A DNA stretch of 64,000 nucleotides from a virus. The stretch is taken from the UHGV virus genome UHGV-1493261; one strand, given 5' to 3'. Made by a program: the position numbers and the translations under genes. The notes under the pieces are model-generated. The model searched no databases and was not told the DNA's origin. It was given only the letters and a program-made list of their open reading frames with translations. This document shows, piece by piece, positions 52,710-56,060 of this stretch (within the stretch, counting starts at the first letter, position 1; each line of letters starts with the position of its first letter).

Positions 52710-52798
52710 TGGCGGAAGGTGAAGGATTCGAACCTTCGGGGGCTAAAAGCCCCACTCGATTAGCAGTCGAGTCCCTTAAACCTCTCGGGCAACCTTCC
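52710..52798 (-). tRNA. tRNA-Ser (anticodon GCT)
   Basis: Manual cloverleaf: acceptor GGAAGGT/ACCTTCC, anticodon loop CTGCTAA, long variable arm GGGGCTTTTAGCCCC, T-loop GGTTCGAATCC, encoded CCA. Confidence 0.7.
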
Positions 52799-53016
52799 AA
52801 TTTGGACGGGCTTCGCACCCGATTGAGCATTTGATCTGCCGTAGCCCAACTCCCCGCGCTTCACAGCGCCGATTGGTTAACTGGTGACCAGTGCCTTCTG
52901 GTTAGATCCCCTGGAACTTTACAGGCTTCGCGCCCAACCATTTCTGGAAGTTGAGGCATCGTTTCCGATGTGGAGTCCCCTCATTTTACACAGCTGGCTG
53001 CAACGCTTACCGTGTT

Positions 53017-53100
53017 TGGTGTGAGTGGATGGATTCGAACCACCGCGCTGTTACGGGGAGATTTACAGTCTCCTGCATTCGACCGCTCTGCCACACTCAC
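53017..53100 (-). tRNA. tRNA-Tyr (anticodon GTA)
   Basis: Acceptor GTGAGTG/CACTCAC, anticodon stem GGAGA/TCTCC with loop CTGTAAA, 12-nt variable arm, T-arm GGTGG-TTCGAAT-CCATC, encoded CCA. Confidence 0.65.
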
Positions 53101-53216
53101 ATTTGGTGGGTGTTACTATCGTCGTCTTCGGATTCCGTTCGGCTATTGGACGTCGCTTCAAGAGCTTGTCGGTCGCGTACTTCTTGCCTATTCACTTTCG
53201 TTCACACCCATAATTC

Positions 53217-53291
53217 TGGCGGTGCCTCAAGGACTCGAACCTTGCTATCACGGATTAACAGTCCGCCGCTTCACCATTTAGCTAAAGCACC
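53217..53291 (-). tRNA. tRNA-Asn (anticodon GTT)
   Basis: Acceptor GGTGCTT/AGGCACC (one G-U), anticodon loop CTGTTAA, T-arm CAAGG-TTCGAGT-CCTTG, discriminator G, CCA. Confidence 0.7.
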
Positions 53292-53299
53292 TGAATATT

Positions 53300-53375
53300 T
53301 GGCATGCCCTCCAGGACTCGAACCTGGGTTGTACGGTTTTGGAGACCGACCTCATAGCCGCCAGATCAAGGGCAC
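53300..53375 (-). tRNA. tRNA-Trp (anticodon CCA)
   Basis: 76 nt with canonical numbering: T-arm CCAGG-TTCGAGT-CCTGG, anticodon loop CTCCAAA, acceptor GTGCCCT/AGGGCAT, CCA. Confidence 0.7.
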
Positions 53376-53443
53376 ACACCTTACAACGAACTATACTGTA
53401 TAAAGGTTATTGAAACAAACGTTTATTTTATTCAACCATAATA

Positions 53444-53520
53444 TGGTGATCCTGATTGGGTTTGAACCAATGACCAATGAATTATGAGTTCACTGCTCTA
53501 ACCGACTGAGCTACAGGACC
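53444..53520 (-). tRNA. tRNA with CAT anticodon (elongator Met or Ile-lysidine type)
   Basis: Acceptor GGTCCTG/CAGGATC, canonical D-arm TAGCTCAGTCGGTTAGAGC, anticodon loop CTCATAA, T-arm ATTGG-TTCAAAC-CCAAT, CCA. Anticodon stem lacks initiator features. Confidence 0.7.
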
Positions 53521-53736
53521 AAATTATTGTGTGACCAACCAAGGACTGTCAACCCTTTATCCCGTTTGTGCATGATCGGTTCATGCAGGCCTCTTTGTGC
53601 TGCCTCACGGCATGCGCTTCTGTTGGTCATTGGCTTACACTGTGGCCTCACAACAGGCGTTTATTTTTCCAGGGCTTTCCACTTGCAAGTCTTGACCATA
53701 CAGGGATACGGGCTTGCAAGATCGGGTTGGACACAA

Positions 53737-53811
53737 CTTTGATGGCTCTGGTATTAAAGATCCCGCGTCACCCATAGACATGGTTTATAAATCCAGAGCC
53801 ATCAAAGTTGC
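53737..53811. repeat. 18-bp perfect inverted repeat around a ~39-nt AT-rich spacer
   Basis: CAACTTTGATGGCTCTGG (53737-53754) and its exact reverse complement CCAGAGCCATCAAAGTTG (53794-53811). Confidence 0.7.
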
Positions 53812-55490
53812 AACCAATGTCGTAACTCGCAGCTTCCATACAGAAGCAACTTGTCCTCTAACACTCGGACCAAACGAGGCTGGCTGGTTGATTCAGAGCC
53901 GCTGGTTGATTCAGCAAGCATGGGTTGATAGCCCGGCAACATAGAATCACCCAATGCTCTCTCAAGTTCATAAATCGAAGTGCCCTGACTCAACAGTATG
54001 GCCCAATATGCTGTTATCGTCCACCGGATTGGCCGCCCAATTTGTAGATCAACCTTTGGGTTTAAGATAAATTGCCAAGGCACTTCGATTTGTGTGCCCT
54101 TCACCTGCCAGGGATCAGGGCTGATGGCAAGACTTCGCTCACATCTTTCAAGATACTCGTGAGAATATCCTCAAAGATGTGGTGCCGTTTTAGGGAGTCG
54201 AACCCAAATGTTCGGCCAGCGCTGACCTTACATCCCATCTGACTTAGGCAACCCACCTCTGCTTACTCAGGAGCTTATCCCCTTTGGACAGTCAGATGTA
54301 ACGGCATTTTATTTAACAATTCATTCAACTGATAACTTCAGGGGACCACTCTCATCTCCCCACATTTCGACCGCCCGGGACGGTTTAGTGGTACGTCACT
54401 TGGTCTGTTACATGGTAGGAGCCGATTCTCCCTCGAATTACCTCTTGTTCGTATGCCTACAAACAATTTCACAGATTGCTGACAAGTTATCATGTGAATG
54501 AATTGTCATTGTATGCCCTGACTTATTAATCACATCTCAGGGCCGCGATGCGCCAGATTCTGTTACAGGGAACTGGAATACCCCGCTGACTTATAGGCTA
54601 TTACGCCGCCATCAGAACTTCGGAATCATTAGCAGTTATTTGCTTGGTCAGTTTCTAAAAACCCGCAAAGTCACGCACAACGAAAACGAAAACCTGTTTG
54701 AGTCCTAAACGTACCTGTCTTAGTCTCACAACGCTATGAGTGGCCAGGACTCAAACAGCTTGCCGTTCAGTAGGTTAACTATACTTTGTAACCCGTTATT
54801 GATAAAACTTTTTATTTTGTTGGCGAGGGTGTCACCATCGATTTACCGGAACTTACGCATCCGGCCTCGCCTGTTGGTGCTCCTTCGAATCCGGGAAGAT
54901 CAGTAGGAACTATGAATCAAGTTAATTCAACCAACAGGAACCTTGTTGCCCTTTGACGCAACATTATGAACCCTCTGTGAAGACTCATAATGTTGTCGGC
55001 GTGATGGAGATTAGCGCCCCCGACCTCCCCTTGTGTTGGTGTCGACTTGCCAACGGGGTGCTCTCTGATTCTGAGCTAATCACGCTACAACAGGGAGTTT
55101 CGTTCTCCGACGGTCAAGTGCGTCCACTGACACCATGCAAGGTGGATATTGACTTATGGAGCCGGAGTCCTCGTCCTAGGACTGTGCTTGGCCTCAGCCT
55201 TTACACCGCTGGTAGCCCGACTCTTTACACCATAAAATTTACTATACTACAGCCCAACTAATTTGAAAAGTCCTCTCCTCTTTGAGCTACACTGCCCACA
55301 GCAGTGCGGACGAACCTGAACTCAAAACCGGATGCGCCGAAGTGGGCGCCTGTTTACCGGACTGATCGGGTCGACCCAGGAGAGAGCAGGTAATCCCGAT
55401 CAGAAGGATGAGGAGTAACATCATGTAAAACATAGTGTTCCCTCCCTTCCATGCAAATAACTTTACTGCAATTATTTATTGAATAAAGCG

Positions 55491-56060
55491 TTATTTTAAC
55501 ACTTCTAACTTCACAATACGACGCAGAAGGTAAACATATTCGCCAGCAGCTTCATGCGTCATATAATGGGTAGAAGGTGTGGAATGAGTGTTCTGGGTTT
55601 CTTTTAATCCAACGCGTTCAGCCCAACCATTAATAGAGTTCCCATAGAAACCGATAATCGCGCCAAAATAAATGCGCCCGCTTTCTGGCTCTAAAACATA
55701 GTTGACAGTGAAGCAAATGTCAGAACGAATAGACTCCAGTTTCATACCAACACGACCTTCAGAGAATTCGTTACGAACATATAAATGACGGAAGCGATCG
55801 CGCCGTGCTTGTGATGATTCTTCCAATTCTTGTCGAAGTGAAGAAGTTATGTCAATATTAAATGAAAATGTTGGATTTCGTAAATCAGAACGGGCCAACT
55901 CTAACGCAGATTCAATAACGCGACGGAAATTGATACTTTTACCTGTCAGGCGTTTCACTTCATCGGTGATTGTTCCAAAAGGGATTTTCGTGGCGTGTTC
56001 CCCTTCGTATTTTGCTAACAAAGGAATAATGTGTTTCATGATTGCTGTGTTAATGTGCAT
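55491..56060 (-). CDS. Hypothetical protein (AT-rich gene)
   Basis: 189-aa ORF in an AT-rich segment between the RNA island and the late structural genes. Confidence 0.45.
   Translation of the reverse strand: MHINTAIMKHIIPLLAKYEGEHATKIPFGTITDEVKRLTGKSINFRRVIESALELARSDLRNPTFSFNIDITSSLRQELEESSQARRDRFRHLYVRNEFSEGRVGMKLESIRSDICFTVNYVLEPESGRIYFGAIIGFYGNSINGWAERVGLKETQNTHSTPSTHYMTHEAAGEYVYLLRRIVKLEVLK

Follow-up and report, generated by a model that had tools for sequence, protein, structure and literature searches.

The stretch of DNA considered here (the window: 64,000 nucleotides of the virus genome UHGV-1493261, from a phage of the Ackermannviridae whose closest BLAST matches are Escherichia phages PC3 and PH4, at 96%, and YX22, at 93%) contains, beside a cluster of tRNA genes, an element of the minus strand at about 54770-54515 (with a core at 54500-54686) that resembles, in sequence and predicted folding, the messenger half of transfer-messenger RNA (tmRNA). 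This element, which we call the messenger module, is very probably a functional tmRNA-derived RNA serving as the template of a peptide tag. How might a phage use half of a tmRNA? The reading that we favour, at a probability of about 0.4, is that the phage RNA docks on the tmRNA of the host, masks the host's template and substitutes its own. The module lies in about 1.2 kb (54306-55490) in which an original prediction, made from the bare sequence, had found no convincing open reading frame (ORF) and had suspected further noncoding RNA or cis-acting sequence; the suspicion is supported by conserved, covarying structures that share the strand of the tRNA genes, and by two near-invariant promoter-like sites. 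Features described below are on the minus strand unless otherwise stated, and the family alignment is one of 11 Ackermannviridae genomes.

The reading frame of the tag is exposed by aligning the window's copy of the module with those of a Salmonella siphovirus, the N4-like phage IME11, the lambdoid HK633 and the Chaseviridae phage flopper. In the window it runs GCU AAU GAU UCC GAA GUU CUG AUG GCG GCG UAA UAG (54598-54633), i.e. ANDSEVLMAA followed by two stops, with GCU as the resume codon and 10 codons in the tag; the SsrA tag of Escherichia coli is ANDENYALAA. An A-rich linker of 11 nt (54634-54644) leads up to the resume codon; its U at -5 and its A at -4 we take to be the equivalents of the frame-setting nucleotides U85 and A86 of tmRNA. 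In the window an in-frame UAG stands seven codons before the resume GCU, and no AUG, GUG or UUG intervenes. All but one of 97 aligned copies have exactly 10 codons and conform to A-N-[D/E]-x-x-x-L-x-[A/V]-A-stop, and this constancy embraces 29 nucleotide versions and 16 peptides. Much of the variation is synonymous: codon 10 may be GCG, GCT or GCC (always Ala), codon 1 GCA or GCT, Leu7 CTG or TTG, and the stop TAA, TAG or TGA. In the leader, A at -4 is present in all tabulated variants and U at -5 in nearly all.

The structures that accompany the tag are also those of a tmRNA messenger region. A P5-like helix (54586-54615; outer part CUGA...UCAG, inner part GGC...GCC) holds the stop codons in its loop and is supported by covariation, the outer pair being GC in 41 sequences and AU in 33, and the inner pair GC in 34 and AU in 26. 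It is followed by an H-type pseudoknot (54553-54585; stem CGGGG/CCCUG, with loop CCAG pairing to a downstream CUGG), likewise recognized by covariation: three of the stem pairs show 17-32 double changes, and the tertiary pairs, although they lie outside the covariance model, are formed in 100% of cells, CCGA/UCGG alternating with CCAG/CUGG and the double changes numbering 18 and 12. Last comes a hairpin with a covarying stem (54515-54544; GGCCCUGA, loop GAUGUGAUUAAUAAG, UCAGGGC), the loop block of which, with its motif UGUGAUUAAUAA, is invariant among five copies found by BLAST; its invariance in larger sets is partly imposed by the search pattern. Over 80 distinct sequences, 92% of cells were paired, against 25-44% when the partners were slid, and the total of 198 double-change cells was matched by none of 500 shuffles. 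The comparison with related phages that the original prediction had proposed has thus yielded structure-preserving covariation. One further candidate, a second pseudoknot stem GUGUG/CACAC, was rejected, having no double changes and 16% of its cells unpaired, with its 5' side fixed by the search pattern. No pseudoknot 1 (PK1) acting in cis was found in the module; the region upstream of the tag offers a possible hairpin, or else pairing in trans with host tmRNA, the helix so formed stopping 12 nt short of the resume codon.

Searches with existing tools give a consistent, if faint, signal. At gathering thresholds an Rfam scan, another of the checks suggested originally, finds only the five tRNAs of the neighbouring cluster; below threshold there are tmRNA-type matches on the messenger module, scoring in the window 21.4 bits against the required 47 for RF04321 and 18.2 against 50 for RF01849, with 33.1 bits in the best relative. 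Sub-threshold matches of this kind recur in five unrelated phages, each time on this element (tmRNA_permuted at 20-33 bits, and also the alpha and beta tmRNA models), and the tmRNA_permuted and beta_tmRNA alignments are anchored on its resume and tag region. We built a covariance model of our own, R1, from 22 diverse copies, and it aligns the tag and P5 of the module onto the tag and P5 of E. coli ssrA. With its threshold lowered to 90% (-ps90), ARAGORN reports a 'permuted tmRNA' in four loci, with tags that include ANDDVVLMAA, ANDDLMLAAA and ANEEMYLAVA; with default settings it reports a tmRNA neither in the window nor in 60 loci. No tRNA-like domain can be formed from the ends of the module itself, and that part is deleted in the Rfam alignments. 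The element lacks defining features of tmRNA, and so we do not class it as tmRNA proper.

Immediately upstream of the linker is a 5' arm (GUUUUCGUUUUCGUUGUGCGUGACUUUGCGGGUUUUUAGAAACUGACCA; 54645-54693) that is antisense to host tmRNA. When R1 is run on the ssrA locus of E. coli K-12, its 5' part matches the opposite strand of ssrA, and the phage arms, of about 45 nt (AGUUUUCGU / GCGAC / UUUGCGGCUUUUUA / GAAACUGACC, with blocks that include GCGUGAC and UUUGCGGG), are complementary to nt 54-107 of E. coli tmRNA, a segment running from the 3' half of PK1 through the A-rich linker and the GUC-GCA resume site to codons 1-6. The duplexes predicted by RNAduplex between arms and E. coli tmRNA have energies of -43 to -47 kcal/mol over 37-41 pairs (z-scores of -4.8 to -6.7 against dinucleotide-shuffled arms, and of -4.5 to -7.0 against shuffled tmRNA), and a site beginning at host nt 50-59 is chosen by 38 of 48 distinct arms. 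For the window's arm, which is antisense to host nt of about 56-107, the values are -45.9 kcal/mol, 37 pairs and a z-score of -4.5 against shuffled host sequence; when host nt 49-112 are removed the best remaining site drops to -29.8, which is background, as is the pairing of the arm with its own downstream module (-26.4). In the segment to which the arm pairs, the phage messenger reads AAU GCA AAC GAU GAU and the host GUC GCA AAC GAC GAA AAC, so that the phage differs from the host exactly where the arm pairs, which points to the avoidance of self-pairing. Variation in arm length is located in a predicted internal loop. Some arms (those of flopper, L016 and L030 among our numbered loci, and the Rosenbergiella types) have another layout, yet all are complementary to host AAAAAUAGUCGC, and the changes that set them apart, A to G or C to U, are of the sort that leaves G.U pairs in place, as is to be expected of pairing to a fixed target in trans. 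From the end of the window's arm to the phage resume codon there are 12 nt; in E. coli tmRNA the distance from the end of PK1 to the resume codon is 11 nt.

The module is widespread. A pattern scan of IMG/VR gave at least 120 loci, most of them confirmed by covariance model, and at loci with a genuine module R1 gives roughly a single match each (97, 36 and 5 in three sets, a few of them partial). Its holders are Ackermannviridae, T1-like, N4-like and Chaseviridae phages, lambdoid prophages and genomes of Enterobacterales; the core elements of the region are 80-98% conserved across families that otherwise have no DNA in common, and at the loci compared the module is always co-oriented with the flanking genes. 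By BLAST, 352 of 5426 E. coli genomes have related sequence, and the module is unannotated by PGAP at every listed match among these 352. More than half of the E. coli matches (208 of 361) are on plasmids, the listed examples being mostly of 94-115 kb, a size typical of phage-plasmids. A pattern scan of 185,579 genomes gave mostly chance matches: R1 confirmed five of the first 100, all in Enterobacterales, and its rejection of the other 95, chance matches in unrelated bacteria, serves as a control for its specificity. In lambdoid prophages (HK633, L005:2245-3196) the module occupies the leader of the late transcript, between PR'/qut and the holin gene, where Shiga-toxin (Stx) phages carry tRNAs and stx. 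Unannotated RNA islands of 1.2-2 kb surround it in IME11 (L004:1700-3785) and flopper (L006:2166-3389), and that of IME11 includes at least one tRNA-like sequence missed by ARAGORN, UCCGGUG...CGCCGGA-ACCA (about 2928-2996), in which the acceptor stem is of 7 bp and ACCA is encoded.

On the docking hypothesis, the phage RNA would pair with host tmRNA during infection, and the pairing would mask the host's tag template. The phage resume codon would be set about 12 nt beyond the intermolecular helix, a spacing like that from PK1 to the resume codon in tmRNA, and ribosomes being rescued by alanine-charged host tmRNA and SmpB would resume on the phage template, adding a tag specified by the phage. 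The tRNA-like RNAs, module B and upstream structured RNAs described below would be neighbouring modules of the same island. If this can be generalized, and we put the wider proposal forward with slightly more reserve than the docking itself, enterobacterial phages of at least five families may carry a mobile, detached messenger half of tmRNA that replaces the host's tag template by antisense docking, the phage thereby choosing both the C-terminal tag and the protease fate of the tagged protein; this would be the first template for trans-translation to be supplied in trans, and the first known case of an RNA reprogramming tmRNA.

Several points weigh against docking. Transcription, RNA ends, pairing and tagging are all things that we infer from sequence, and we know of no precedent for the loading of a template onto tmRNA in trans. 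There are short-arm variants with non-significant duplex energies (z-scores of about 0 to -0.6), and RNAduplex ignores competing intramolecular structure, the host's PK1 being stable. The arm can also form a PK1-like hairpin in cis (CUUUGCGG/CCACAAAG), which is 92% paired and which covariation neither supports nor excludes; another possible cis helix, AGUUUUC/GAAACU, has both sides invariant, in a part where the 5' alignment is ragged. The complementarity could be a relic of an origin from an inverted fragment of ssrA. The 'Vibrio' phage pYD38-A and the 'Acinetobacter' phage AB4P2 both carry the enterobacterial arm, and are therefore uninformative about any covariation of arms with particular hosts. 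Finally, the presence of a tRNA-like RNA downstream of many modules suggests that the module may have an acceptor partner of its own.

In the Ackermannviridae this downstream RNA is of a type that encodes CCA. The window's example, a 126-nt tRNA-like domain that we call TLD#2 (54180-54305, beginning one base outside 54306-55490), has the acceptor GCCGUUA/AAACGGC, a long internal helix, a T-arm GGG-UUCGACU-CCC, discriminator A and an encoded CCA. It is restricted to the family, being shared at 94-98% identity by 199 records, none of those listed having it annotated, and it has at least four compensatory changes in comparison with Shigella phage MK-13. In SeKF_19, a Kuttervirus, it comes 6 nt after the messenger module, while in the window module B intervenes. 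ARAGORN misses it, and Rfam tmRNA and tRNA models match its T-loop only; both in TLD#2 and in tRNA-like RNA #1 (described below) the anticodon arm is replaced by longer helices, and there is no canonical tRNA cloverleaf at the Rfam threshold. Just after the 126-nt RNA, Kuttervirus has a 65-nt tRNA-like element (SeKF_19, L002:3929-4000; acceptor GACAUUG/CAGUGUC, T-arm GCGGG-UUCGAGU-CCCGU) flanked by an inverted repeat, CAUCUUAGAGGAC/GUCCUCUAAGAUG, of which a hairpin CAUCUUUGAGGA...UCUUGAAAGAUG alone remains in the window (54140-54180).

Outside the Ackermannviridae another type occurs, in at least 33 of 109 contexts: a tRNA-shaped RNA of 90-155 nt, 78-570 nt downstream of the module, with the acceptor UGUGGUG/CACCACA, discriminator A, sometimes an encoded CCA, and a hypervariable core. 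Its D-like hairpin (GCGCA-GGCUGA-UGCGC) and T-like hairpin (GCCGG-AGAUCAGCA-CCGGC) have loops that are Watson-Crick complementary to each other (GCUGA/UCAGC), and this pairing is kept in the variant copy of L059 (GUCGA/UCGAC). Loci with this type include L003-L005, L083, L086 and about 30 others, a minority of them having canonical D and T loops. A 12-bp P2-like helix, AGUGCUCUUUCC/GGUAAGAGCAUU, encloses the module in many of the non-Ackermann copies and links it to the 5' side of the UGUGGUG-type domain, and the 5' strand of this helix is upstream of the module in some copies and downstream in others, a variation like that of circular permutation.

These RNAs are the basis of the main rival to docking, namely that module and domain (TLD#2 here, UGUGGUG...CACCACA elsewhere) together make a split phage tmRNA, in which the domain is charged, binds SmpB and enters stalled ribosomes, and the two RNAs, coming from one precursor, cooperate, the arm at most silencing the host competitor. 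The proximity, conservation, encoded CCA and covariation of TLD#2 are as this idea would have them, as are the frequency of the UGUGGUG-type RNAs with their conserved loop-loop complementarity, the P2-like connection, and the fact that what ARAGORN joins into a 'permuted tmRNA' at -ps90 is the module and the UGUGGUG-type domain. We nevertheless think it unlikely. The G3:U70 pair that confers alanine identity is present in none of the tRNA-like RNAs near the module, the third acceptor pair being C3-G70 in TLD#2, U3-A70 in the UGUGGUG family and U3.G70 in the Kuttervirus tRNA-like RNA #3, and acceptor sequences vary between phage families. Each domain has both acceptor strands, so that RNase P would detach it from the messenger. 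A tether in the form of pairing between the messenger and the downstream domain was considered and rejected, as the variable-core duplex scores no better than shuffles (mean z -0.9). About two-thirds of the contexts had no such domain in the scan used, and the specific complementarity to host tmRNA would be left unexplained.

That complementarity, strong and confined to nt 54-107 of the host molecule, is equally the mainstay of a second alternative, in which the RNA is purely an antisense inhibitor or sponge: the arm would block the resume region and stop trans-translation and the tagging of phage proteins, the tag frame being vestigial or a structural mimicry. Phage interference with trans-translation has a precedent in mycobacteriophage DS6A, the tRNA-like-domain-only RNA of which is reported to inhibit tmRNA (PMC4131195). 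We consider simple inhibition improbable in the face of the constraint on the tag at the level of the peptide (10 codons fixed, third positions varying synonymously, replacements conservative, stop and U-5/A-4 kept), a pattern that an untranslated vestige would not show, and of the maintenance by covariation of P5 and the pseudoknot. The idea that the region is non-functional debris, consisting of decaying tRNA and tmRNA pseudogenes and the scars of mobile elements beside a tRNA cluster, draws on the mosaic, indel-rich character of the island (tRNA-like RNA #3 deleted here, module B variable, insertions and an HNH gene in relatives), but the conservation of the core across unrelated families, the compensatory changes and the retention of the promoter-like sites make it very improbable indeed. 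A hidden protein-coding gene, frameshifted or on the plus strand, might be read from a 102-aa plus-strand ORF (54953-55261) and from the many short coding sequences auto-annotated in some records, but can be dismissed with near certainty, since those short annotations are inconsistent from record to record and every ORF other than a 48-aa gene (see below) is broken in close relatives or has an amino acid identity lower than its DNA identity.

Comparison with known systems brings out what is unusual in the docking model and in the module itself. With one-piece tmRNA (SsrA, RF00023, as in E. coli ssrA) the module shares the A-rich leader with U-5/A-4, the alanine resume codon, a 10-codon tag with AND at its start and two small hydrophobic residues at its end, stops in P5, and a pseudoknot after the tag; it differs in having no flanking acceptor, D or T elements and no demonstrable PK1 in cis, in having two downstream structured elements where tmRNA has PK2-4, in scoring 8-33 bits against gathering scores of 47-84, and in its 5' region, which is antisense rather than homologous to tmRNA. 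Phage T4 has stable small RNAs (species 1/2, RNA C/D) co-transcribed with its tRNA cluster, for which no tag frame or complementarity to tmRNA is known; they resemble the present case, by description, as structured non-tRNA RNAs of the same precursor in a phage tRNA cluster. The module is like antisense or sponge small RNAs in that a long, imperfect duplex of several blocks with one particular host RNA is predicted for it, and unlike them in that its target is tmRNA rather than an mRNA or small RNA and that the arm is fused to a translatable tag template.

The best Rfam matches are to the two-piece, permuted tmRNAs of alpha- and betaproteobacteria and cyanobacteria (RF01849-51, RF04321), to which the phage homologues are also alike in their differing circular orders (the 5' strand of P2 before or after the module) and in that the module is likely to be processed from a longer precursor with tRNA-like parts. 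The pieces of two-piece tmRNA are tethered by an acceptor stem to which both contribute (PMC11915505), whereas the nearby phage domain holds both acceptor strands and lacks G3:U70. Relatives reduced to the tRNA-like domain are found in DS6A, in jakobid mitochondria and in some plastids (PMC4131195, PMC11915505); they show that the halves of tmRNA can exist apart, and that a phage endowed with one of them can disturb the trans-translation of its host, but they have the tRNA-like half without a tag, and the present module is the converse. A messenger-only form is absent from the two tmRNA surveys that describe the domain-only forms (PMC4131195, PMC11915505). Phage tmRNA genes have been reported almost only from mycobacteriophages and Bacillus phage G (PMC4131195); a 2025 survey lists 79 phage sequences, from ARAGORN, BLAST and covariance models (PMC11915505); genome papers on the phages considered here report zero tmRNAs (PMC10112204), and we found no description in the literature of tmRNA-like elements in these phage families.

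Between the messenger module and TLD#2 in the window lies module B (54314-54510), a structured RNA of about 195 nt, recognized by folding and comparison, with a terminal closing helix of about 25 bp. Its minimum free energy is -64.6 kcal/mol (z-score -4.3), and 14 of 61 predicted pairs show compensatory changes in comparison with the copy in the Schitoviridae phage S5; blocks of it are 100% conserved between Ackermannviridae and Schitoviridae (L007:2990-3195; L130:2050-2245; L082, about 9146). A hairpin that the original prediction had noticed near 54417 is real, GGAGCCGATTCTCC being a stem within this mobile module. Module B is 97% identical in Klebsiella phage K751 and missing from most Kuttervirus phages, and such presence and absence among close relatives points to an indel or mobile element; it could be an intervening sequence excised by RNase III. 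It is beside tRNA genes in S5 and on the same contig as a messenger module in L082, and an exact-pattern scan of IMG/VR gave one further locus.

Upstream of the messenger module there are several other elements. A promoter-like site, P1 (TTTTCA-17-TATAGT, 55241-55269, from a consensus scan), is the likely transcript start of the RNA island; the block around it, GGAGAGGACTTTTCAAATTAG...GTA.AGTA, is near-invariant in the 11 Ackermannviridae, and promoter function seems probable from this. A second such site, P2 (TTATCA-16-TATAGT, 54778-54805, from the same kind of scan), is directly upstream of the messenger module, in a block, GTTTT(A/G)TCAATAA.G..T.ACAAAGTATAGTTAAC, that is invariant across the family alignment; at the equivalent position T1-like phages have TTGACA-17-TAGATT, which is sigma-70-like. 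A 12-bp 5' hairpin, CUGUUUGAGUCC...GGACUCAAACAG (54694-54758), leads into the module, and the family alignment has two compensatory double changes in it between clades (GAGUCC/GGACUC versus GGGCAC/GUGCUC).

Between the two promoter-like sites, tRNA-like RNA #1 (54998-55085, from Rfam and alignment) has the acceptor GCGUGAU/AUCACGC, a D-arm, an elongated arm in the anticodon position with an invariant loop AGUCGACA, an atypical T-arm and no CCA. It scores 23.2 bits with the Rfam tRNA model (RF00005), against a gathering score of 29 bits, and covaries both in the acceptor (GUGUGAU/AUCACAC in Taipeivirus) and in an inner stem (GUUGG/CCAAC versus GGCGG/CCGC); three of four aligned Taipeivirus phages have insertions of 24-60 nt in its D-loop. 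An 11-bp hairpin, CAACAUUAUGA...UCAUAAUGUUG (54959-54995), has both stem strands invariant among the 11 sequences, its loop being largely conserved, with few variable positions. Next to it is a domain (54870-54938) closed by a 9-bp helix, CCUGUUGGU/ACCAACAGG, and containing a conserved hairpin UCUUC-CCGGAUUC-GAAG, which is kept in all 11, with a U.G variant in Kuttervirus. The sequence CUGAUCUUCCCGGAUUCGAAGG (54915-54880) was considered as a tmRNA 5' acceptor with its GGAUUCGAC motif; the likeness is coincidental, for in the family alignment it is a small hairpin loop inside this helix-closed domain, and a matching acceptor 3' strand is absent.

The remaining element is a remnant of tRNA-like RNA #3 (54821-54871 in the family alignment), consisting of GGCGAGG, a hairpin CCGGAUGCGUAAGUUCCGG (54846-54864) and CCUCGCC-A. 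The hairpin is the one to which attention had been drawn near 54845, and it is genuine: CCGGAACTTACGCATCCGG has one substitution in one of the 11 aligned genomes and is otherwise invariant. In this phage the T-arm and the proximal acceptor strand have been deleted, a deletion of about 50 nt that is common to the window, YX22 and L031. Intact copies are present in Kuttervirus and Klebsiella phage K751 (L002:4437-4503, L130, L132); they have 67 nt, no anticodon arm and a T-arm GUGUGG-UUCGAUU-CCACAC, the acceptor and T stems covary, and the copy in SeKF_19 has been called 'tRNA-Ala'. In size the 67-nt gene is similar to the domain-only tmRNA forms (about 65 nt) of the tmRNA database paper.

The island that contains these elements lies between five tRNA genes (Ser, Tyr, Asn, Trp and Met; 52710-53520, ARAGORN) and, on the same strand, the next annotated gene, a 189-aa ORF (55491-56060, phrog_3788). 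It is true that 54306-55490 has no minus-strand ORF of 60 aa or more, the longest being of 51, 48, 32, 32 and 31 aa, and the statement that it has no convincing ORF holds for 54306-55286. It fails at the right-hand end, where a 48-aa ORF (MFYMMLLLILLIGITC..., 55287-55433) with a GGGAGGG ribosome-binding site is a genuine gene for a small hydrophobic protein, outside the RNA island. Across the Ackermannviridae, tblastn finds it stop-free in Kuttervirus and Agtrevirus, at 88-94% amino acid identity and about 81% DNA identity; it matches phrog_8415 (E 1.4e-32) and is annotated in YX22 and, as orf219, in CBA120. This conservation and the phrog match mean that about 200 nt at the right of the reported stretch are coding. 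The ORF-poor block is nevertheless real, with other limits and a larger extent (53521-55286) than had been given. The lack of long ORFs in 1.2 kb, taken at first as a signal, is ordinary for random sequence; what exceeds chance is the 70-98% identity across the phage family together with base-pair covariation.

A conserved protein frame in homologues, which would have told against noncoding RNA, was looked for by tblastn against 10 relatives, and all ORFs of at least 30 aa in 53800-55290 were rejected save the 48-aa gene; between 54306 and 55286 the objection falls away because the other ORFs are interrupted, or their proteins diverge faster than the DNA, in close relatives. Close relatives have the 102-aa plus-strand ORF disrupted, by stops or by breaks of the frame, and where it is open its amino acid identity, 59-64%, is below that of the DNA. 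A 100-aa ORF with a GTG start (53802-54104) has stops in YX22, L031 and Taipeivirus relatives, and is probably no gene. On the evidence of its sequence, the block is an RNA island of about 1.77 kb (53521-55286) on the minus strand, co-oriented with the five tRNA genes and predicted to be transcribed together with them. BLAST matches the gap region in 291-442 phage records, and among distant matches its sub-blocks are met with again in unrelated phages, the DNA there being in every case unannotated and the orientation that of the flanking genes and tRNAs. One block between the tRNA-like domain and tRNA-Met (53874-53960, plus-strand coordinates) is 83% shared with Klebsiella phage FBKp27 of the Schitoviridae (L008:3001-3087), flanked there by a terminator and by the last gene of a six-tRNA cluster. 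Genes for HNH homing endonucleases have been inserted in or beside the island in CBA120 (L132:158-571) and in phage 0507-KN2-1 (NC_022343), which is consistent with an indel-rich, mosaic region.

What might this mean for the biology of these phages? Almost all bacteria have the tmRNA-SmpB system, on which several phages are known to depend; ARAGORN, Rfam and PGAP would systematically be missing a whole class of tmRNA relatives, the holders of which include candidate therapeutic phages (Kuttervirus, T1-like and N4-like), Stx-type lambdoid prophages and phage-plasmids. The manipulation by phages of ribosome rescue and proteolytic tagging would be far commoner than has been thought, and large 'non-coding gaps' beside phage tRNA clusters become recognizable as modular RNA islands. 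If docking is true, the choice of template in trans-translation would be redirectable in trans, with potential as a programmable tagging tool.

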